Positions 17,590 through 52,141 of a stretch of DNA of 59,083 bases are shown piece after piece. A program made the position numbers and the translations under genes. The notes below the pieces were generated by a model. It saw nothing but the letters and a program-made list of their open reading frames with translations, had not been told where the DNA came from and did not search any database. The DNA lies in NCBI GenBank assembly GCA_963632615.1, contig CAVGVF010000001.1, positions 138,636 to 197,718 on the forward strand. Direction: 5' to 3'. Position 1 is the first letter of the stretch. The number at the start of each line of letters is the position of its first letter. Source of the DNA: an uncultured Eubacteriales bacterium (GTDB taxonomy: Bacteria > Pseudomonadota > Alphaproteobacteria > RF32 > CAG-239).

Positions 17590-17689
17590 ATTCTTATTCT
17601 CCTGAATATTTGCATAATCTTTACTTGCTTTTAGCGGCAAGACTCATTAAGCTGCATTATAAAACAAAGATACTTAATAAAGGCTAAAA

Positions 17690-42604: not shown

Positions 42605-45529
42605 ATGGCGGCAAAAATCTATAATATCAATGCCGGAGCATCTTTTGTAGATGTTTTGGCCGAGCATTTTTTGAAATGTTATAAAAATCAGCCGGAAGAG
42701 CTGGCTAATGTTTTATTTTTGCTGCCGAACAGACGCGCCTGCCAGAGTTTATCCGAGGCGTTTGTGCGCCTTAAAGGTCTTGAGCCGACTATTTTGCCGC
42801 AGATATTGCCGATAGCCGATGTTGAGGAAGACGAAGTGTTTTTGACCGGTCAAAGCAATATTCTGCAGGATTTGCCGCCCGAAATTACTAAAACCGAACG
42901 CGTATTTATTTTCAGCAAGCTGATATCGCAAAAACCGGAGTTAGGCTTTGGACATCTTTCTTTGGCTCAAGCTTATGCTTTGGCCGAAAATTTAGCAGCG
43001 CTGATTGATTTGTCTTATAATGAAAACTTGGATTTTTCCCGACTCAGTGAAATCGTGCCGGCAGAATTTGCGGCGCATTGGCAGGAAAGCTTGGAGCTGC
43101 TGAAGATTATTACGGAATATTGGCCGCAGATTTTGCAGGAACGAGGCAAGGCCGATACGGCAAAACGCCGCAATCAGCTGCTGGAAGCCGAGTTAAAGCT
43201 CTGGCAGCAAAGCCAAACCAAGCAAAAAATTGTGGTAGCCGGAACAACCGCCGCATTTCCGCTGCTGAAACAGCTGGTTAAAACGGTTTTGAATTTGCCG
43301 GACGGAGAAGTCTGGCTATACGGTTTAGACAGTTGTCTGGAAGATTCCGGCTGGGCGCTGATAGATGAAAATCATCCGCAGTTTGAGCTGAAAGAGCTGC
43401 TTGATTATTTGCAGGTTGACCGTGGCAGCATAATCAATCTGCCGCAAAAAACGTTCAGTCCCAGAGAACACCTTGTTTCTGAAATTATGCGTCCGGCGGC
43501 CGATTCTGCAGAATGGCGCTCTTTGTCGGGTAATCCTTTGCCGGAAGAGGCCTTTAAGGGGATTCATCTGCTGAATTGCGATGATATTCGCCAAGAAGCG
43601 CAGGCTATTGCTTTGCTGATTCGCAACACTTTGGAAATGCCCGAAAAAACTGCCGCTTTGGTTACGGTGGATAGAAATTTGGCGCGGCGGGTGGTTTCCG
43701 AGCTTAAAAAATGGAATATTGTGGCGGATGATTCGGCCGGACAGCCGTTAAGCCTGACGCCGATCGGCATATATTTACGGCAGATTATCAATGTGCTGGA
43801 AAATGATTTTTCGCAGGTAAGCCTGCTTTCCTTGCTGAAGCATCCGTTTACATCGTGCGGGCAAAATCCGGCGGTTTTCAATCAAAAAGTCCGTAAATTG
43901 GAATTAAGCTGGCGTAAAAAAGAAGATTTGTCGCCGGAGTCGGCTGAATTTTTAGCCGGAATAAAAGAAATTTTTGTTCCGCTGTGCGAACAGTACCGGC
44001 AGGCGGAAATAGATTTGCAGCAGTTTTTTACCTGCCACATTAAAACAGCCGAGCTCTTGGCGGATACGGATATAAAAACCGGCGATAAAATTATTTGGAA
44101 GAATGACGCCGGAGCCGCAGCCTCTAAGTTTGTGGGCGATTTTATGCAGAATTGCGGTATTTTAGGCAAAATTAAGCCGCATGATTATTTGGCGTTTTTA
44201 GAAAGTATGCTGATAGAGCAAAATGTGCGCGTTCGCTACGGTATGCACCCGCGGGTTAAGATTCTGGGCCCGATTGAAGCCCGTTTGACTCAGTTTGATG
44301 TAACAATTATCGGCGAAGTAAATGAGGGTGTTTGGCCAAAGCTGCCGACAGCCGATTTATGGATGTCGCGCCCGATGAAAAAGGATTTCGGATTTCCGCT
44401 GCCGGAACGGAATATCGGTGTGGCCGCCGCTGATTTTGCTCATTTGCTGAATGCGCAGAAAGTCTATTTGACCAGAGCCGAACGGGTTGACGGCACGCCT
44501 ACGAATAAATCCCGCTGGTGGCTGAGATTTGAAACGGTTTTAGCGGCAAATTTCGGCAATCAAAAAGAAGATAAGGCAAAATATGAATTTTTATATGACA
44601 ATAAATATTCTTTGTGGGCAAAATATTTAGAGCGGGCAACAGAGCAAAAGCGTATTTCCGCACCGGAGCCTCGTCCGCCGTTGCCGCTGCGTCCGCGCAA
44701 ATTGTCGGCGGTAAATTTTGAGATGCTGATGCGCGATCCATATACAATTTTTGCCAAATATATTTTGAAGCTTTATCCGCTGGAAGAACTCGACGAGGAT
44801 GTGGCCTATCGGGATTACGGCAATATTGTTCATGCCGTGATAGAAAAGTTTAACAATGTTTACAGCACCGGAGCCTATCCGCCGGATGCAGAACAGCAGC
44901 TACTGAAATTGGGAGAGGCTGAATTTGCCGCCAATAATATAAGTTCGGATATCAAGGCTTTTTGGTGGCCTAAGTTTGTTAAGACAGCGGCCTGGCTGGT
45001 AGAAACAGAGAAAAACTACCGCAGTGAAGTTAAAAAAGTTCACAATGAAGTGAGCGGCAGTCTGGATTTTGATTCTGACGGCGGCAAGTTTACCATAACC
45101 GCTAAGGCCGACCGTATAGACGAAACCATAGACGGACATTTGAATGTGTTGGATTACAAAACCGGCAGGGCTCGTACGCTGAAAGAAATCATTACCGGAA
45201 TGGCTCCGCAGCTGCCGATAGAGGGGCTTATTGCCGAAAAAGGCGGATATGCCGGGATTCCGGCCAAGGAGGTGGCAACTTTGCGCTATTGGCGGCTGGG
45301 CAAGGAAGAAATTGCTGCAAACAGCGAGCAAAGCCAAAAAGGCTTAGAAAGAACAATGAGCTATCTGCAAACTTTAATCGCCCATTTTGATAAGGAATCA
45401 ACCCCTTATTATGCTAAGCCGAACCCGCATGATGCGCCGGATTATTCGGACTATGACCATCTTTCCCGTTTTTTGGAGTGGTCGGTAAGAGATGAACAAG
45501 CCAAGGAGAATGATTCAGATGAAAACTAA
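42605..45529 (+). CDS. addB: double-strand break repair protein AddB (alphaproteobacterial type)
   Basis: 974 aa, immediately upstream of and overlapping addA. It has a C-terminal PD-(D/E)xK nuclease motif (LNVLDYKTG). Confidence 0.85.
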   Translation: MAAKIYNINAGASFVDVLAEHFLKCYKNQPEELANVLFLLPNRRACQSLSEAFVRLKGLEPTILPQILPIADVEEDEVFLTGQSNILQDLPPEITKTERVFIFSKLISQKPELGFGHLSLAQAYALAENLAALIDLSYNENLDFSRLSEIVPAEFAAHWQESLELLKIITEYWPQILQERGKADTAKRRNQLLEAELKLWQQSQTKQKIVVAGTTAAFPLLKQLVKTVLNLPDGEVWLYGLDSCLEDSGWALIDENHPQFELKELLDYLQVDRGSIINLPQKTFSPREHLVSEIMRPAADSAEWRSLSGNPLPEEAFKGIHLLNCDDIRQEAQAIALLIRNTLEMPEKTAALVTVDRNLARRVVSELKKWNIVADDSAGQPLSLTPIGIYLRQIINVLENDFSQVSLLSLLKHPFTSCGQNPAVFNQKVRKLELSWRKKEDLSPESAEFLAGIKEIFVPLCEQYRQAEIDLQQFFTCHIKTAELLADTDIKTGDKIIWKNDAGAAASKFVGDFMQNCGILGKIKPHDYLAFLESMLIEQNVRVRYGMHPRVKILGPIEARLTQFDVTIIGEVNEGVWPKLPTADLWMSRPMKKDFGFPLPERNIGVAAADFAHLLNAQKVYLTRAERVDGTPTNKSRWWLRFETVLAANFGNQKEDKAKYEFLYDNKYSLWAKYLERATEQKRISAPEPRPPLPLRPRKLSAVNFEMLMRDPYTIFAKYILKLYPLEELDEDVAYRDYGNIVHAVIEKFNNVYSTGAYPPDAEQQLLKLGEAEFAANNISSDIKAFWWPKFVKTAAWLVETEKNYRSEVKKVHNEVSGSLDFDSDGGKFTITAKADRIDETIDGHLNVLDYKTGRARTLKEIITGMAPQLPIEGLIAEKGGYAGIPAKEVATLRYWRLGKEEIAANSEQSQKGLERTMSYLQTLIAHFDKESTPYYAKPNPHDAPDYSDYDHLSRFLEWSVRDEQAKENDSDEN

Positions 45530-48500
45530 GGAAGAGTTTGCCGCCTTGCGCCAAGAGCGCGGCGATTTAGCCACCGGCCAGCAGCGTTCGGCCGCCAATC
45601 CGCAGAAATCTGTCTGGGTTGAAGCGTCAGCCGGCACCGGTAAAACCAAAGTGCTTTCAGACCGCGTGCTGCGCTTGCTTTTAAGCGGTGTTAATCCGCA
45701 GCGTATTTTGTGCCTTACCTATACTAAAGCGGCGGCGGTGGAAATGAATACCCGTATTTCCGAACGCCTCAGCAAATGGTCTGTTTTGCCGGAAGATAAG
45801 CTGGAAGAAAGCCTGTTCAGCCTGCTGGGAGATGAGTTCGGCGATATAAAGCAGCAAAAAAAATATAAGCAGAGAGCCCGTACCTTGTTTGCTGTTTTGC
45901 TGGATACTCCGGGCGGTATCAAAATCCAGACAATACATAGTTTTTGTCAGGAAGTTTTGAAGCGTTTCCCGCTGGAGGCCGGTGTTTCTCCGTATTTTGA
46001 TATTTTGGACGATGAAAGCGCAGCCGAAGCCTTGGCGCAAATTCAAAAAGATTTGCTTGATGAGGCCGAGCACGGCGCCGATAGTCCGCTGAAAGAAGCT
46101 TTGCAGTATCTAACCGAGAATTTAAGCGAATATTCTTTTCCGCAAGTTATGAAAAATATTACTCTTAACCGCTCAAAAATTACGGATTTGCTGAAAAATT
46201 ATGCCGGCAATGAAGAATATGAAAATGTTTTGGCGCAAAAATTGCAGATTAGCCCTCAAGACACGGAAGATACGGTTATTGCCGATTTTATGGCCGGAAT
46301 AAACGTTGCCGGGCTGCGCTTGAATATAGCCGCTTTGCTGCAAGGCGGCAGCACCGACCAAAGCCGTGCTGAAAAATTGGAAAATATTTTAAGAGGCGGA
46401 ATGAAACCGGCTGACTATAATCAATATGTCGGGATTTTTGTAACGCAAAAGGGAACATTGCGCAAAGCTGCGGATAAAAAGTCCTGCGCCGCCGATGCCG
46501 GATTGTCTGATCGTATGACCATGGAAGGCGAGCGTGTTTTGCAAACAGAAGATAAAATCCGTAAAGCCCGTTTGTTTCAAGCTACTAAAGCCGTGTTTAC
46601 CATAGCCCGGGAATTGACCGGACACTATAATGAATTTAAAAAGCAGCATGCCCGCTTGGACTATGAGGATTTAATTTTAATTACCCGCAATCTTTTGGCG
46701 GATGATGCAGCGGCTTCTTGGGTTTTGTTTAAGCTGGACGGCGGTATTGACCATGTTTTGATTGATGAGGCGCAGGATACTTCGCCGAACCAATGGGAAA
46801 TAGTCAAATCGCTGAGTGCGGAATTTTTTGCCGGCGCCGGCAGTTCCGATAAAAAGCGCACGGTTTTTGCCGTGGGCGATAGAAAACAGTCTATTTACAG
46901 CTTTCAAGGCGCCGATCCGGATAAATTTGATGAAACGGCAGAATATTTTGCGCAAAGAGCCGCTTCCGAATTTGAAAAAGTAAATCTGGCGGTGTCTTTC
47001 CGTTCTTCGGCTGCGGTGCTGAACACGGTAAATCAGCTTTTTGCCGATTCGGAAGTGTCTAAAGGCGTAACCGCTCCGGAAGAAACAGTTAATCATATTC
47101 CATTCCGAGCCGGCGAGTTCGGACACGTGGAGATTTGGCCGCTGCTGGTGGCGGAGAAAAAAGAAAAAACGGATGACTATAATTGGCAGCCGCCGGTAGA
47201 GATGAGCAAGGAAATATCGGTTAAAACCCGTCTGGCAAAAAAAATGGCGGCAAAAATAAAAGAGCTGGTAGAAAAAGAAAATCTGCATTACCGCGATATT
47301 ATGGTTTTGGTACAGACCAGAAGCAGTTTTGTTGATGAGTTTATTCGGGCTTGCAAAGATGAAAACGTAAATATCAGCGGTGCCGATAAGTTGCGTTTGA
47401 GCGAGCAGATTGCCGTGCAGGATTTAATTTCCCTGGGGCGCTTTTTGCTTTTGAACAATGATGATTTGTCATTAGCCGAAGTGCTGAAATCGCCGATTTT
47501 CGGATTAACTGACGATGATTTAATAAAGCTCTGCGCCGGCCGCGGCAATGCTCCTTTGTGGTCAAAACTCGGGGATTTTCCGGAATATTCGCAAGTGTAT
47601 AATGATTTAAAAACTCTGTCGAATATGCTGGATTTTGTGCGCCCTTATGAATTGTTCAATTATGTTTTAACCGCCATGAACGGCCGCTATAAGTTTACGG
47701 AACGTATGGGCATGGAAGTTGAAGATGCCTTAGATGAATTTGTTAATTTGACTATCGCCTACGAGCAAGAGCATATTCCGGGGCTGCAGGGTTTTATAGA
47801 TTGGATAGGCCGCAGCGAAGTTGAAGTAAAGCGCGAAACCGAACAAAAAGATACGGATGCAGTGCGGCTGATGACTGTGCACGGTTCCAAGGGTTTGCAG
47901 GCGCCGGTGGTCTTTTTGCCGGATACGGTGCGGGTAAAAAATGCCAAAAATGAACAAGCCTTGCTCTGGGGCGATGACATCGCATACTATCCGCTGAACA
48001 GCGCCTGCTATGACGAGAATTGCAAAAAGATTAAAGATAAAAATAATGACAAGGCTTTTGAAGAGTACCGCCGGCTGCTGTATGTGGCTCTAACCCGCGC
48101 CGAAGACAGGCTGTATATTTGCGGCTTTGCCGGAAAAGACGGAGCCGACAAGCGTTCTTGGTATGAGCTTTGCCGCAAAACTTTGCAGGAAAAAGGTGTG
48201 CCGGACGGGGATATAATTACGGTTGATGAGCCGGAGGTCATCGCTAAAAAAACAGATGATAAAGTTTTTGCCTATAATGAAATACCGGCGCCAGAACCCT
48301 GGATAAATGAAAAGGCTCAGGCCGAGGATTTGCTTGCCAAACCGTATACTCCGTCGCATTTGGAAGAGGATGAAAATGTTGATTCTGTTTCTCCGTTGAA
48401 AGACGGCGGAAATTACTACCGCCGCGGCACGATTATCCACAAGCTTTTGCAGTTTTTACCGCAAAGCGCTGCCGATAAAACAGAAATCATAAGCGAATAT

Positions 48501-48893
48501 CTTGATAAAAACGCTGCCGATTTGAGCCGGACGCAAAAAGAACAGATAGAATATGAAGTGCTGAATCTGCTGCATAATCCTGAGTTTGCCGAAATATTCG
48601 GCAGCTGTTCGCGGGCAGAAGTGCCGATTATCGGCGAAGTTAAAGGCAAAAACGGCGCAAAAGACAAGATTATTTCAGCTCAGCTGGACAGATTGGTTAT
48701 TTTACCGCAAAAAATTATGATTGTGGATTTTAAAACTAACCGTCCGGCTGCCAAAGATTTGAGCGCAACTCCGCCTGCTTATATCAATCAGCTGCAGGCT
48801 TATGCGGAATTGGTGCAGAAAATATATCCGGATAAGCTGGTCGAAACATATATTTTATGGACGAATGAAACCAGATTGATGCGGGTCAGCTGA
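45519..48893 (+). CDS. addA: double-strand break repair helicase-nuclease AddA
   Basis: The ATG at 45519 follows AAGGAG and overlaps the addB stop. UvrD-type motifs (EASAGTGKTKVL, IDEAQDTSP) and a C-terminal nuclease motif (IMIVDFKTN) are present. Confidence 0.88.
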   Translation: MKTKEEFAALRQERGDLATGQQRSAANPQKSVWVEASAGTGKTKVLSDRVLRLLLSGVNPQRILCLTYTKAAAVEMNTRISERLSKWSVLPEDKLEESLFSLLGDEFGDIKQQKKYKQRARTLFAVLLDTPGGIKIQTIHSFCQEVLKRFPLEAGVSPYFDILDDESAAEALAQIQKDLLDEAEHGADSPLKEALQYLTENLSEYSFPQVMKNITLNRSKITDLLKNYAGNEEYENVLAQKLQISPQDTEDTVIADFMAGINVAGLRLNIAALLQGGSTDQSRAEKLENILRGGMKPADYNQYVGIFVTQKGTLRKAADKKSCAADAGLSDRMTMEGERVLQTEDKIRKARLFQATKAVFTIARELTGHYNEFKKQHARLDYEDLILITRNLLADDAAASWVLFKLDGGIDHVLIDEAQDTSPNQWEIVKSLSAEFFAGAGSSDKKRTVFAVGDRKQSIYSFQGADPDKFDETAEYFAQRAASEFEKVNLAVSFRSSAAVLNTVNQLFADSEVSKGVTAPEETVNHIPFRAGEFGHVEIWPLLVAEKKEKTDDYNWQPPVEMSKEISVKTRLAKKMAAKIKELVEKENLHYRDIMVLVQTRSSFVDEFIRACKDENVNISGADKLRLSEQIAVQDLISLGRFLLLNNDDLSLAEVLKSPIFGLTDDDLIKLCAGRGNAPLWSKLGDFPEYSQVYNDLKTLSNMLDFVRPYELFNYVLTAMNGRYKFTERMGMEVEDALDEFVNLTIAYEQEHIPGLQGFIDWIGRSEVEVKRETEQKDTDAVRLMTVHGSKGLQAPVVFLPDTVRVKNAKNEQALLWGDDIAYYPLNSACYDENCKKIKDKNNDKAFEEYRRLLYVALTRAEDRLYICGFAGKDGADKRSWYELCRKTLQEKGVPDGDIITVDEPEVIAKKTDDKVFAYNEIPAPEPWINEKAQAEDLLAKPYTPSHLEEDENVDSVSPLKDGGNYYRRGTIIHKLLQFLPQSAADKTEIISEYLDKNAADLSRTQKEQIEYEVLNLLHNPEFAEIFGSCSRAEVPIIGEVKGKNGAKDKIISAQLDRLVILPQKIMIVDFKTNRPAAKDLSATPPAYINQLQAYAELVQKIYPDKLVETYILWTNETRLMRVS

Positions 48894-48986: not shown

Positions 48987-49304
48987 ATGACACAACCATT
49001 AAACGACAGCCAATTTTCTGAAAATGTTTTAAATTCTAAAGGGCTTGTTTTGGTCGATTTTTGGGCAGAATGGTGCGGCCCGTGCCGTCAGCTTGGACCT
49101 ATTTTGGAAGCTATTGACGAAGAAATGGGCGGCGATGTTACTATTTATAAGATGAATGTTGATGATTCGCCGGAAACAGCCAGCCAGTTCGGTATCCGCA
49201 GTATTCCGACAATGTTTTTGTTCAAAGACGGCAAACAGGTAGACACCAAAGTCGGCTTAAACACTCAGTCAACCATCTCTTCTTGGATTGAATCATATAA
49301 ATAA
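48987..49304 (+). CDS. trxA: thioredoxin
   Basis: The ATG at 48987 follows AAGGAGAAAAAAT. Active site WAEWCGPCR. 105 aa. Confidence 0.93.
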   Translation: MTQPLNDSQFSENVLNSKGLVLVDFWAEWCGPCRQLGPILEAIDEEMGGDVTIYKMNVDDSPETASQFGIRSIPTMFLFKDGKQVDTKVGLNTQSTISSWIESYK

Positions 49305-49325
49305 CTTACTAAGATAAGAAAAAGC

Positions 49326-49355
49326 TTGACAATAGGTCACCTGATGTGATATAAA
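49326..49355 (+). promoter_or_regulatory. putative sigma-70 promoter with extended -10 (module A)
   Basis: TTGACA, an 18-nt spacer, then TG-A-TATAAA. The 10-mer TTGACAATAG and the TGATA element recur at 51303. Confidence 0.45.
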
Positions 49356-49366
49356 ATTGCCATGAT

Positions 49367-49401
49367 GAAAAAGTGTGCTCGAGAAATCGGCGCACTTTTT
49401 T
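49367..49401 (+). terminator. hairpin plus T-run (trxA terminator and/or attenuator)
   Basis: AAAAAGTGTGC pairs with GCGCACTTTTT (one G-U pair) across an 11-nt loop, and T6 follows. Confidence 0.5.
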
Positions 49402-49430
49402 GTTATTTGAAAATTTAGTCATACAACCAA

Positions 49431-49470
49431 AAAATCCCTTTGTTTTATGAGCAAAAACAAAGGGATTTTT
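49431..49470 (+). terminator. perfect 16-bp hairpin plus T-run (module A), homologous to the hairpin at 51405
   Basis: AAAATCCCTTTGTTTT (49431-49446) pairs perfectly with AAAACAAAGGGATTTT (49454-49469). It lies 37 nt upstream of the 372-aa gene. Confidence 0.55.
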
Positions 49471-49506
49471 CATTTTAAATTTACTCTAAATTAAAGGAGA
49501 TATTAA

Positions 49507-50625
49507 ATGAGTAATAAATTAAGAAATTCTTTACAAAGAAATTTTTATTTAAGAGATGAACGTGATTTATTAGATAAACAAATTGCGTTGTTAAAAGAAA
49601 ATAATTATCCGCTTGAAGAAATTCAGGCATTAGAAAAGCAACGAGCTATGGTGGATGAAGCATTTAATAAAAAAACGCATGATTCAAATGAACCTGAAAC
49701 TATAGGTCAAAAAAGCTATGATTATTCTTATGAACCGGATAGAGATATATGGGATAAAGTTAATGGCAATTACCCTGACGGAGCAGACGGCGAGCGTATG
49801 CGCCAATATGATAACAGAAGGGCAATGATAGAAAAAGTCAATAACGGCACATATTCTCTTGATGACTATATAAATTCAACTTATCAAACAATACCGCAAA
49901 TGTCGGCTTTGTCAAAAAGTAACCAACCAACGGCTCAACCAAACATAAACCCGCAGGAACAAGGATTTTGGACAGTAGAAAATGCAAAAAAATACTTGCG
50001 CCAAGCCAAACAACTGGGATATACTGCAATAAACGGATATTCCATGGGATATTTGGATGAGTTATACGGGGCTGTAGAAAGCGGGGCATACGGTGCCACT
50101 GAAGCATTTCTAAAAGCCTTTGCCGGTTATAATCCCAAAGAAAGCACCTGGGATAGCATGAAAGAAACGTACGTACAAGGCAGAGATGATATGCGCAGAG
50201 AATTGCAGCAGATTAAAGATGAACAACCGATATTAGCAAATATAGCCGATGCAGCCGGTTCTTCATTAAGTCCGTCAATATTCTCTAAAGGCAAACAAGT
50301 AGGCCTTGTTCGAAATACGCTTATTCCAAGAGTTGAACCTTGGACGTATGGAACAGTCGGCAGTGCGGTAAAAAACCAGATGAAAAATGCTATAGCAAAC
50401 AGTGTACTCAGCGGAATCGGCAATTCTGAGGAAAATACTCTGAGTGAATATGCTAAAAATGCAGGAAAAAGCATGATAGGCAATATTGCCGGCAGCAAAG
50501 CCGGAAATGCCTTGTTTGGCAGAAACTTAGAACATGTACTTGGACGAGCTACTGTTGACACCGTTACTAACTATGCCGTTAATTCAGGCCTAAATAGCAT
50601 TGAAGATTATTTAAGGAAAAAATAA
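49507..50625 (+). CDS. 372-aa protein of unknown function, with no signal peptide and a Gly/Ala/Ser/Asn-rich C-terminal third (toxin-like candidate)
   Basis: SD AAAGGAG 7 nt upstream. The N-terminus is coiled-coil-like. The C-terminus reads GIGNSEENTLSEYAKNAGKSMIGNIAGSKAGNALFG, with small-xxx-small spacing. The region is visibly AT-richer than its flanks. Confidence 0.7.
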   Translation: MSNKLRNSLQRNFYLRDERDLLDKQIALLKENNYPLEEIQALEKQRAMVDEAFNKKTHDSNEPETIGQKSYDYSYEPDRDIWDKVNGNYPDGADGERMRQYDNRRAMIEKVNNGTYSLDDYINSTYQTIPQMSALSKSNQPTAQPNINPQEQGFWTVENAKKYLRQAKQLGYTAINGYSMGYLDELYGAVESGAYGATEAFLKAFAGYNPKESTWDSMKETYVQGRDDMRRELQQIKDEQPILANIADAAGSSLSPSIFSKGKQVGLVRNTLIPRVEPWTYGTVGSAVKNQMKNAIANSVLSGIGNSEENTLSEYAKNAGKSMIGNIAGSKAGNALFGRNLEHVLGRATVDTVTNYAVNSGLNSIEDYLRKK

Positions 50626-50627
50626 AT

Positions 50628-51026
50628 ATGAAAGATTTTTGGGAAGATCTTTGGGAAAACTTTGTCAAACCATATTTTTTTGTTCTGATTATGATTGGCA
50701 TAATATGCTGGCTATACGTGTATCCCTGTCTTTTTTATATTGGACAATTAAGATGGTACGATATTATGGGGGTTATTTTTATATCTTCCGAAGCTTTGGC
50801 TGCCATTTTTCATAATAAAAGCAAGCTCGTAAGACATTTAGAACCCTTTATATTTTCTGATAGATGTTTTGAAATAACCTTTTGTGTTGTAACTTTTTCT
50901 AATTTAATGCATATAGAGGCTGCGTGGCCGATTTTTTGTTTGTTATTGAAAACAAGGGGTATCTATGTAGCATTAGTTTTTTTAGGAATTGGCATATACA
51001 ATTATTTTACCATTCCCAAAAGCTAA
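50628..51026 (+). CDS. 132-aa four-TM membrane protein (immunity-like candidate)
   Basis: The ATG lies 2 nt after the upstream stop, and four hydrophobic segments are present. I recognised no family. Confidence 0.65.
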   Translation: MKDFWEDLWENFVKPYFFVLIMIGIICWLYVYPCLFYIGQLRWYDIMGVIFISSEALAAIFHNKSKLVRHLEPFIFSDRCFEITFCVVTFSNLMHIEAAWPIFCLLLKTRGIYVALVFLGIGIYNYFTIPKS

Positions 51027-51062
51027 AACTTTCTTATTTACCTGGAAATTAAGTAAAACTGA

Positions 51063-51106
51063 ATGATAAGCCTCAAATTCCCAAAGATGAGGCTTATCAT
51101 TTTTTC
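51063..51106 (+). terminator. intrinsic terminator of the two-gene cassette
   Basis: A perfect 13-bp stem (ATGATAAGCCTCA / TGAGGCTTATCAT) is followed by TTTTT. Confidence 0.7.
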
Positions 51107-51175
51107 TGCTGTACCACACAGCTGCCATATAAATATATAAAGTTTTACACAGCTACTATTTGTAAGTATATTTAT

Positions 51176-51209
51176 ATAACATATTATATTTTAACATAAC
51201 ATATTATAT
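51176..51209. repeat. 14-bp direct repeat ATAACATATTATAT, two copies on a 20-bp period, within an AT-rich spacer
   Basis: Exact copies lie at 51176-51189 and 51196-51209. A degenerate third copy (ATAACATTATT) starts near 51233. Confidence 0.55.
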
Positions 51210-51302
51210 AAATATACAAATCTTTTATACGTATAACATTATTTTTCAATTATATTTTTATTATGAAATAAAATTAAAAAATTATATTTTATAATAAAAA
51301 AC

Positions 51303-51331
51303 TTGACAATAGCTGATTAGTATGATAATAA
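51303..51331 (+). promoter_or_regulatory. putative sigma-70 promoter with extended -10 (module B)
   Basis: TTGACA, a 17-nt spacer, then TG-A-TAATAA. It shares TTGACAATAG with module A. Confidence 0.45.
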
Positions 51332-51404
51332 GATAATGTATTTGGTAATATCCATGTTAATATTATGCCCTTTCATAATATGTTATGTTGTATTTATACT
51401 CTCC

Positions 51405-51440
51405 AAATCCCTTTGTTTTCCCAAACAGAGGGATTTTTTT
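51405..51440 (+). terminator. hairpin plus T-run (module B), homologous to the hairpin at 49431
   Basis: AAATCCCTTTGTTT pairs with AAACAGAGGGATTT (one G-U pair) across a 4-nt loop, followed by T7. It lies about 75-100 nt downstream of promoter B. Confidence 0.55.
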
Positions 51441-51542
51441 GTCTTTAGATTTAAATCTATTTATATATATTGCTGCATATCTATAAACATTAGAAAGATA
51501 ACAACCACAGGATTATGGAAATTGTAATTTTACAGAATCTTC

Positions 51543-51571
51543 TTGCTTTTAGGCAATAAGTGTGCTACACA
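51543..51571 (+). promoter_or_regulatory. putative promoter of rplQ
   Basis: TTGCTT, a 17-nt spacer, then TG-C-TACACA, about 115 nt upstream of the rplQ ATG. Confidence 0.3.
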
Positions 51572-51685
51572 ATACCCGAAATTGAGTTGGTTTTTATGTA
51601 TGAGCGCTTGGCGCCACCGTAGTAAAAACCTTGTATTTATCCGCTTTGCCCATCAAAGCATAGAGAAAATGAAAGGAATTACATC

Positions 51686-52141
51686 ATGAGACATGGTGAT
51701 GGACACAGAAAATTCAGTATGCCGAAAAGCCAAAGAAGAGCTTTGTTCTCTAACTTGACAAGTTCTTTGCTGGAACACGAACAAATCACAATTACTTTGA
51801 CAAGAGCCAAAGAATTGAGAACTTTTGCCGACAATATGATTACTTTTGCTAAAAAAGGCGATTTAAACAGCCGCCGTATTGCCGCAGGTTTCTTGCGTAA
51901 TAATGAAGTAGTTTCTAAACTGTTCTCTACTTTGGCAGAACGTTATAAAGAACGCAACGGCGGTTACACCCGTGTATTGAAAGCCGGTTTCCGTTATGGC
52001 GACTGCGCTCCGATGGCAATCATTGAATTGGTTGACCGCGATGTAAACGCTAAAGGCGCTAAAGATTTGGCTCGCGTTGCTGCCGAAAAAGCAGCCGCTG
52101 CTGAAGCTGAAAAAGCCGAAAATGCTGCTTCTGCTGAATAA
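51686..52141 (+). CDS. rplQ: 50S ribosomal protein L17 with an Ala-rich C-terminal extension
   Basis: The N-terminal [24 protein letters not shown] is typical of L17. The tail reads [20 protein letters not shown]. Confidence 0.93.

Follow-up and report, generated by a model that had tools for sequence, protein, structure and literature searches.

A mobile two-gene cassette between trxA and rplQ of an uncultured alphaproteobacterium: a candidate phage-derived membrane toxin and its immunity protein

We describe here a small cassette in a 59,083-nt stretch of DNA from an uncultured alphaproteobacterium (contig CAVGVF010000001.1); this whole stretch is called the window. The cassette lies at about 49315-51465, between the core genes trxA and rplQ, and encodes a 372-aa helical protein and a 132-aa membrane protein. 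Both genes are real and move as a discrete unit, the pairing of the large protein with a small membrane protein and the leader in front of the genes are conserved, and distant relatives of the large protein occur in phages and in fusion with MuF domains. We propose that the cassette is phage-derived and encodes a putative membrane-acting toxin together with its cognate inner-membrane immunity protein, a reading of sequence comparisons to which we assign a probability of about one half. The protein family is undescribed, the kind of system is familiar. In the following, the 70 loci that were fetched for comparison carry L-numbers and member proteins of the family carry P-numbers.

The gene for the 372-aa toxin-like protein (49507-50625, + strand) is followed after 2 nt by the ORF for the 132-aa immunity-like membrane protein (50628-51026, + strand), whose ribosome binding site (RBS; AAGGA) falls within the 3' end of the first gene. 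Two core genes flank the cassette and lie outside of it. These are trxA on the left (48987-49304, + strand; Thioredoxin, E 1.5e-31), which is preceded by addB and addA, and rplQ with its own upstream region on the right (51592-52141, + strand; coding region 51686-52141, Ribosomal_L17, E 2.9e-38). An earlier note on this DNA, made from the letters alone, had described two ORFs 2 nt apart between trxA and rplQ, and the coordinates and the Pfam matches of the flanks agree with it. The pair is also AT-rich, as had been stated there: GC content is 0.38 in the first and 0.31 in the second gene compared to a window mean of 0.43, and GC at third codon positions (0.298, z = -2.8, and 0.293, z = -2.9) is the lowest of all 50 window ORFs in these two. 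Along the DNA, GC falls from ~0.46 in addA to 0.29-0.42 over the pair and to 0.21-0.23 immediately downstream. Both ORFs are real genes because they are under purifying selection; over five pairs of homologues the ratio of nonsynonymous to synonymous rates (dN/dS) is 0.13-0.18 for the 372-aa protein and 0.12-0.42 for the 132-aa protein. The extent given earlier (49507-51106) covers only the genes and their terminator, and the conserved unit of leader, two genes, terminator and downstream DNA is larger: it measures ~2.2 kb, reaching over a 190-nt leader (from ~49315) and ~360 nt past the terminator (to ~51465). Phage genes, recombinases, transposases and tRNAs are absent from the neighbourhood of the cassette in the window.

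Comparison with related loci reveals that the pair is not a fixed part of this region. A scan with the C-terminus of addA returned 47 related loci, and the order addB-addA-trxA is kept in 46 of them. L039 represents the empty site. Here, addA-trxA is followed by ~210 nt and then by rplQ, the protein of which is 95% identical, and the right flank (rplQ and the region upstream of it) is collinear with that of the window. Window positions 49328-51591 stand in place of 89 nt at this site. Insertion may have occurred inside the trxA terminator of the empty site, or via microhomology to it. The left cassette end (window 49314-49331, AAGAAAAAGCTTGACA) resembles the left arm of that terminator (L039, 1285-1320, ATAAAAAAGCTTCC...GGAGGCTTTTTT). 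More generally, the region 3' of trxA is rearranged among relatives. In L017 (11602-15069), trxA is followed by two pilin-like genes and secY-adk, and in L015 (AddA 95% identical) hairpins come after trxA before the sequence diverges ahead of the contig end. Close homologues of the 372-aa protein are few, only seven (68-100% identity) being found among 5.8 billion protein clusters. All of them are metagenomic, and one stems from a metagenome-assembled genome of an uncultured alphaproteobacterium in a Hadza metagenome assembly. Together with its leader, the pair is located between AP_endonuc_2 and uncharacterised genes in L001-L004, behind a T2SSE/T2SSF operon in L065-L069, behind such an operon with tyrS on the far side in L005/L007, and upstream of a T2SSE/Peptidase_M29 gene pair in L006. 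The type II secretion system-like locus and the other cassette contexts do not lie within the 59-kb window. DNA homology between the loci starts at ~49315 and ends at 51027, or at 51465 in L005/L007. We rejected the idea of a tRNA-targeted island, because a tRNA scan found none.

Several copies have decayed. In L006, positions 1620-2294 hold the remnant of a second toxin gene (matching window 50137-50294), followed by an intact second small gene that resembles an orphan immunity gene and is highly divergent, with 52% identity to any other copy. In L070 (210-497; P0014, P0026, P0027), toxin codons ~289-336 are fused in frame to codons 84-132 of the small gene, a single deletion having removed the small gene's first 84 codons along with the C-terminal end of the toxin; an ankyrin-repeat ORF lies upstream. 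Several decayed cassettes like L070 are present in databases. With an empty site, at least four genomic contexts overall (window included) and decayed or orphan copies, the pair is an accessory, discrete and horizontally mobile two-gene unit, and it is not universally syntenic, a possibility that had been left open at first.

The second line of evidence is the pairing itself. The 132-aa protein is nearly all hydrophobic, with about four transmembrane (TM) segments, in line with the four hydrophobic helices first read from its sequence. Its Asp45 is invariant, and when the small partners, distant ones included, are aligned, TM2 begins with an invariant Asp, TM3 carries an LMH/Y-x-E motif, and a basic loop of K-S-K type is shared. 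The gene is found 2 nt behind the large gene at every close-homologue locus. For the distant family, pairing was counted at five loci with readable downstream DNA (L009, L013, L014, L011 and L063/L064), where the large proteins share no more than about 22-30% identity with the window protein. L009 has its large gene between recF and an ABC transporter gene, followed by a 127-aa protein with 3-4 TM segments; in L013 and L014, TM proteins of 115 aa and 98 aa follow, respectively, and on the phage contig L011 the family homologue is followed by two small TM proteins (97 and 88 aa). In L063/L064, between a HhH-GPD glycosylase/PQ-loop pair and rpmF-plsX, small ORFs come next, the TM content of which was not scored. 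At L062 the family gene is located by gyrB, and a 60-aa ORF of opposite orientation is all that was called beside it. Even over deep divergence, a soluble helical protein thus stays combined with a small polytopic membrane protein. Since partners are found across very distant relatives, the association of large and small protein is ancient, and this argues for direct functional dependence.

The 372-aa protein begins with a helical domain (aa 1-133), continues with a Q/N/P-rich linker (134-155) and a highly conserved core (156-262), and ends in a C-terminal third (263-372) that is G/A/S/N-rich and evolves faster than the core. Within the protein, dN/dS rises from 0.04-0.08 (core) to 0.21-0.38 (C-terminal third), and the nonsynonymous rates of this third and of the small protein are 3-5 times the core rate. 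Neither a hydrophobic segment nor a signal-like N-terminus was detected (maximum Kyte-Doolittle value of a 19-mer 0.95), which agrees with the earlier statement that a signal peptide is missing. The N-terminus, described before as coiled-coil-like, is predicted by AlphaFold to form a helical hairpin (aa 3-55, helices 3-31 and 36-55; pLDDT 77-93). Further helices extend up to residue 123, and only aa 1-133 are modelled with confidence. A different picture emerged for the small-xxx-small spacing that the earlier note had seen in the last ~90 residues: this part is 32% G+A+S and contains 9 such pairs compared to 8.7 +/- 2.1 in composition-preserving shuffles, 53% of which reach 9. The glycine-zipper argument is therefore statistically empty for the window sequence, but conserved glycines remain. 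Family-wide, G303, G305, G329 and G338 are invariant or nearly so, and the consensus NIGxxxxGNxxGxxxGNxxFGR is kept throughout the distant family; the conserved GNxxGxxxGN stretch of the window protein contains G325, G329 and G333. Invariant or near-invariant residues of the core are D184, E185, G188, Y222, R226, D227, R230, P241, G251, P256, G303 and G305. The toxin of L065 (6001-7508) is a mosaic. Its first 302 residues are 96% identical to L068, and its last 66 residues are closer to L005 (76%) than to L068 (61%). The small protein next to this mosaic remains L068-like (86%).

A profile of the seven close proteins was searched against 1.84 billion representatives and retrieved 53 distant relatives, 18 of them with E < 1e-10, that match residues about 120-372. 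The domain common to these relatives is the core at aa about 155-372, and the N-terminal parts vary by subgroup. In the sources, family members are annotated as 'hypothetical protein' or not at all. Searches of Pfam, NCBIfam and PHROGs gave no significant match for either protein of the pair, PADLOC gave nothing with E < 0.01 for the pair or its relatives, and a sequence profile search of the PDB found nothing, so that the family is indeed an undescribed one, as had been supposed. Foldseek likewise found nothing in the PDB and only weak matches in BFVD (E >= 0.06) to uncharacterised Caudovirales proteins of 700-750 aa; these fold searches are uninformative for the core because the AlphaFold models are poor beyond residue 133. 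Pfam applied to 43 family members recognised only MuF and PG_binding_1, both in accessory regions, and left the core uncovered. P0051 carries a partial Phage_Mu_F match (E 1.3e-12) ahead of the core, P0061 a weak MuF match (E 2.4e-4) together with PG_binding_1, and P0053 has PG_binding_1. The MuF segments in these relatives are partial, covering profile positions 56-110 of 112.

The cassette also has conserved non-coding parts. Its left end (49315-49365, + strand), where the homology of L001, L005, L007, L065 and L068 begins directly past the trxA stop, carries a sigma-70-like promoter with TTGACA at 49326-49331, an 18-nt spacer and TGaTATAAA, the -10 element being at 49350-55. This promoter was read by eye and is omitted by a promoter scan since its -10 ends in A. 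It is followed by hairpin 1 (hp1; 49366-49401, + strand), which is terminator-like in RNA folding with a GTGTGC...GCGCAC stem and T6 and is kept in all close cassettes. Hairpin 2 (hp2; 49430-49475, + strand) is a 17-bp perfect palindrome (AAAAATCCCTTTGTTTT / AAAACAAAGGGATTTTT) with a T-run, and among the 70 fetched loci it is associated with cassettes only. Folding of 49350-49512 yields -46.9 kcal/mol (z = -6.8). An RBS read from the sequence (AAGGAG, 49494-49499, + strand; AAGGA in homologues) is placed 7 nt before the ATG. All close cassettes keep the order promoter, hp1, hp2, RBS and ATG. Two terminator-like hairpins between a promoter and the start codon imply control by attenuation or read-through, or a tiny leader RNA. 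A leader peptide was rejected as a candidate, an 18-codon ORF of the window being broken by a stop in L005 and L007.

Behind the genes, the strong terminator reported earlier is present as an intrinsic terminator that closes the pair (51062-51107, + strand) with a 14-bp perfect stem (arms 51062-51075 and 51088-51101), a 12-nt loop and T6; the terminator is nearly identical in L005 and L007. A 48-aa minus-strand ORF spanning this terminator was discarded in view of a 2-nt indel in L005. Next comes an AT-rich, palindrome-rich non-coding element (51102-51290, ~20% GC) with repeated ATAACATATTAT motifs, part of which is also found behind the pair in L065-L069. The right end of the L005/L007 homology (51291-51465, + strand) contains a second promoter box (TTGACA, 51303-51308) and, after ~80 nt, an hp2-like hairpin (51405-51438), with no gene behind. 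The promoter box overlaps a promoter-like site on the minus strand (TTGTCA 51309-51304, 17-nt spacer, TATAAT 51286-51281; 11/12 matches) that is directed into the AT-rich palindromic stretch. This promoter box/hp2-like module and the divergent promoter (51281-51445) could be small RNA genes; a search of Rfam with 49200-51750 gave sub-threshold chance matches only. In comparison to L005, identity is 90% in the leader, 93% in the AT-rich element and 90% in the second promoter/hp2 segment, whereas the genes have nucleotide identities of 75.5% (372-aa protein) and 68% (132-aa protein), with dS of 1.35 and 1.43. The non-coding flanks are better conserved than the genes and than synonymous sites, which was unexpected. 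Flanks more similar than the genes point either to strong selection, as on RNA or protein-binding elements, or to a separate recent exchange. The hairpin hp2 was also seen at junctions with other cargo, namely before a gene for a 227-aa lipoprotein-like protein in L005 (4417-4500) and after trxA in the close relative L015 (11485-11568), where L005 junction sequence follows and not the toxin gene. The hairpin might serve as an anchor for recombination and mark a strain-variable locus.

How could such a pair work? Toxicity, a membrane target, the direction of protection and the delivery route are what we infer for this system. After synthesis in the cytoplasm, the 372-aa protein would be soluble and all-helical. 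Handling or delivery may be the task of its variable N-terminal part (aa 1-133), and the core with the G/A/S/N-rich C-terminal helices (aa about 155-372) would exert its effect on the cytoplasmic membrane or the envelope of cells without the partner protein. The translationally coupled 132-aa protein would reside in the inner membrane of the producer and neutralize the toxin there, similar to the immunity proteins of pore-forming colicins, CdzI and Sip6. Expression is presumably kept low by the leader with its two terminator hairpins between promoter and start codon. Delivery might occur by packaging into phage or other particles, by release upon lysis or by an unrelated secretion system. The mobility of the unit, the pairing with a polytopic partner, the coupled order with the toxin gene first, the MuF and PG-binding fusions, the fast and mosaic C-terminal third and the fast small protein all favour a toxin with its immunity protein, and we also count the missing match to any housekeeping or enzymatic family in its favour. 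Fusion of the core domain to a partial Phage_Mu_F segment fits the logic of polymorphic toxins. The orphan copy in L006 and the joint loss in L070 are the kind of decay expected of a toxin/immunity pair. We rate this explanation highest because most of the inspected members are solitary chromosomal pairs and because the large gene is strongly constrained.

Several observations weigh against it. No known toxin domain is matched. A secretion signal is missing from the 372-aa protein, and its gene has no secretion system beside it. As a hydrophobic segment is missing, insertion into a membrane would require oligomerization or refolding. Beyond residue 133 the AlphaFold models are helical with a pLDDT of about 30-68, both with 7 and with 43 sequences. 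The invariant residues D184-E185, Y222, R226-D227 and R230 could equally well belong to an enzyme or to an assembly interface. A test for co-variation of immunity protein and C-terminal tail was negative, the tail of the L065 protein being swapped and its small protein unmatched, and this does not agree with a simple picture in which the tail is the part recognized by immunity. Finally, relatives in virion modules indicate that the large protein may be a conduit or structural protein and not a weapon. Of the toxin/immunity pair that the earlier note proposed, the accessory mobile unit and the coupling therefore stand and a MuF fusion has been added, but toxicity is conjectured; its observations were largely right, and its interpretation is a reasonable but unproven best guess.

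Among known systems, one described family of polymorphic toxins consists of MuF proteins that end in a toxin domain, and 89% of the muf toxin genes have a small putative immunity ORF behind them (Jamet et al., 2017, PMC5576092). The family described here is similar in that the core is C-terminal to a Phage_Mu_F segment in the distant relative P0051 and weakly in P0061, that a small ORF (<150 aa; here 132 aa, at 2 nt) follows the large gene, and that relatives lie in phage morphogenesis modules. It differs in that the window protein itself has no MuF domain (PF04233), its core matches no known toxin domain, and the window cassette is situated between trxA and rplQ, outside a prophage.

Immunity proteins of pore-forming colicins have 3-4 TM segments. 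Such proteins have been reported to localize to the inner membrane (cited in PMC6889166), and for the pore-forming type VI secretion system (T6SS) effector Ssp6 it was described that ssp6 and sip6 overlap by 4 nt and that Sip6 has 2 TM helices (PMC6889166). Colicins and Ssp6/Sip6 share with our pair a soluble, largely helical toxin-like protein and an adjacently encoded small polytopic membrane protein, which in our pair has ~4 TM segments and a gene at a distance of 2 nt. However, there is no sequence or fold match (Pfam, PDB), and receptor or translocation domains, a lysis gene and T6SS genes are missing here. The 372-aa protein, with a maximum 19-residue hydropathy of 0.95, also lacks the hydrophobic helical hairpin of pore-forming colicins. 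In the Cdz system of Caulobacter, CdzC and CdzD are peptides of 86 and 84 aa with RTX-type secretion signals, encoded beside the type I secretion genes cdzAB, and CdzI is a small immunity protein with 3 TM segments and no homologues (PMC5380434). Common features are the alphaproteobacterial host and a small-residue-rich toxin with a conserved GxxxGxxxG stretch. In contrast to Cdz, the window encodes a single 372-aa protein with a helical-hairpin N-terminus, next to trxA and rplQ and without an adjacent type I secretion system; an ABC/MFP pair is adjacent in none of the homologous contexts. As to the extended GxxxGxxxG repeats of Cdz, one conserved GNxxGxxxGN stretch is found here, and the small-xxx-small count equals the shuffle expectation.

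The analogies to Cdz and to T6SS effectors that had been drawn from the sequence, and likewise one to colicins, were thus not supported as family kinship. Membership of the window protein among the Cdz, colicin, MuF-toxin, type IV secretion system (T4SS) effector, P22 E-protein or PADLOC systems is not supported. For the XVIPCD domain of X-Tfe effectors no significant Pfam match was obtained, the presence of an XVIPCD model in that Pfam copy being unconfirmed. As for T4SS components, the window was found to contain only a coupling protein (10223-12439, - strand; T4SS-DNA_transf, E 1.5e-56), 37 kb off, and no link to the cassette was found. This coupling protein is followed by four ORFs (497, 163, 674 and 353 aa; whole region 10223-17640, - strand) that have no Pfam match at E <= 1e-5.

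The relatives found in phages suggest another purpose for the large protein. P0023 (291 aa, contigs L011/L012) is 29% identical over aa 156-372 (E 7e-17) and 46% over the first 26 residues. L011 and L012 are gut-metagenome contigs that resemble a podophage virion module and could help to define the phage form of the family. On L011, a 522-aa protein, an acetyltransferase-fold protein, the homologue, the two small TM proteins and virion/fibre-like proteins are encoded in this order. The 522-aa protein is related to P22-gp10-like tail tube B proteins of Sulfitobacter, Brucella and Mx8 phages, and in the annotated Sulfitobacter phage phiGT1 the genes that come after the counterparts of the 522-aa and acetyltransferase-fold genes include one for a putative structural protein and two for proteins with a putative internal virion/injection role. 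In Silvanigrella phage MWH-Nonnen-W8red-1, the domain is part of a 558-aa ORF that lies four genes past the portal gene and has 29% identity over aa 147-305. In tblastn searches of GenBank phages, this phage was the only one found with the window protein, and P0019, P0023 and P0062 found nothing. The uncharacterised phage family phrog_5880 (661-position profile) is matched over its N-terminal ~190 positions by four distant members (E 1e-6 to 7e-3), whereas the window protein itself is below significance for every PHROG. The earlier note had held that kinship to a phage structural family would speak against a toxin. Such kinship exists in part, as podophage virion modules contain the nearest relatives outside the genus-level clade, with one occupying the ejection slot.

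Because the nearest relatives outside the clade are found among podophage virion genes, one in an ejection-protein slot, an ejection/exclusion origin is a live alternative, which we nevertheless judge to be unlikely. The large protein would then be homologous to a podophage internal-virion (ejection) protein that helps to build a DNA conduit across the envelope, and the small one a SieA-like blocker, so that the cassette would be a captured phage module that excludes related phages or serves particles encoded elsewhere, and not a killing device. P22 provides the precedent. Here, the ejection genes 7, 20 and 16 are directly followed by sieA, which encodes an inner-membrane protein with 3 TM segments that blocks the conduit; SieA-escape mutations are located in the C-terminal regions of gp16 and gp20, and gp20 consists of mosaic modules (PMC10883804). 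Likewise, the L011 homologue occupies the slot behind gp10-like and gp14-like genes (the window gene is not so placed), small TM proteins are encoded beside an ejection-type gene, C-terminal mosaicism is observed, and the proteins are helical, of low complexity and poorly modelled. Against this, sieA is on the opposite strand and expressed from the prophage, while the window cassette is alone in the chromosome, and most inspected members are solitary pairs amid housekeeping genes with no phage genes near. Profile comparison with hhalign did not detect homology to P22 gp7, gp20, gp16 or SieA (probability < 1% in all four comparisons). The close family is missing from the 2.9 million viral contigs of IMG/VR, and scans of viral contigs with P0023 and with two non-coding motifs gave no loci. 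Exclusion alone would also leave unexplained the strong purifying selection on the large protein (dN/dS 0.13) and the joint loss of large and small genes. The toxin/immunity and the ejection/exclusion frames share a core mechanism, a helical protein at the cytoplasmic membrane that is neutralized by a cognate membrane protein; they differ in the purpose of the large protein.

A further version is, in our judgement, similarly unlikely. A podophage ejection-type protein and its membrane blocker might have escaped as a ~2-kb, recombinase-less cassette that moves via its own conserved, non-coding, hairpin-bearing ends and is controlled at the RNA level by the promoter, the double terminator, the duplicated promoter/hairpin module and the divergent antisense promoter. 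It would act as a particle-delivered weapon or as a suicide switch triggered by read-through.

A still less likely explanation is an intracellular toxin-antitoxin or abortive-infection switch. In this case the large protein would never be exported, it would be silenced by the double-terminator leader and buffered by its membrane partner, and terminator read-through (e.g. by a phage antiterminator or a foreign RNA polymerase) or depletion of the partner would lead to collapse of the producer membrane. It is consistent with the 372-aa protein having no export signal and no secretion genes near, with an own promoter and two strong terminator hairpins before the start codon in every close homologue, with the non-coding conservation above the genes that suggests RNA-level control, and with a small, mobile, AT-rich cassette between core genes, as is the case for many defence and toxin-antitoxin modules. 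However, there is no PADLOC match, and the toxin-first coupled order and the MuF/PG-binding fusions point to delivered toxins. The peptidoglycan-binding fusion in particular implies action outside the cytoplasm, and an orphan protector copy as in L006 is more typical of immunity to an incoming toxin. Least probable is an accessory role in the envelope without toxicity, such as that of a scaffold at the membrane and its anchor, which would merely happen to travel together, since the variable position, the empty site, the decay in some strains, the composition foreign to the host genome, the phage and MuF connections of the family and the lack of a pilus operon next to the pair in the window all speak against it, even though no toxin, enzyme or defence family is matched, the core is strongly constrained by purifying selection and the pair stands beside a T2SSE/T2SSF pilus-like operon in several lineages.

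If the toxin/immunity reading is true, the pair represents a new family of membrane-directed toxins and a new family of polytopic immunity proteins in poorly studied uncultured gut Alphaproteobacteria, and a traceable evolutionary link between bacterial two-gene conflict cassettes and phage virion proteins, via the ejection slot and the MuF fusions. An escaped module would be a new class of mobile module that joins phage DNA-delivery proteins to bacterial conflict systems, and should the pair be an exclusion module, the principle known from SieA would apply to a new family of proteins and in a new class of bacteria. With its small size, sharp boundaries, known empty site and natural decay variants, the cassette is a convenient system to ask how units of this kind move without a recombinase, what the role of the conserved flanks is, and whether phage ejection proteins can become weapons. 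Further work seems most rewarding on the phage link and on the conserved non-coding architecture.

Two minor observations concern the flanking genes. The ORFs of addB (42605-45529) and addA (listed as 45492-48893) share 38 nt (45492-45529), and the real addA start may be further downstream than listed. On the other side, rplQ (51686-52141) stands alone with its own promoter region and is not the terminal gene of an rpoA operon.

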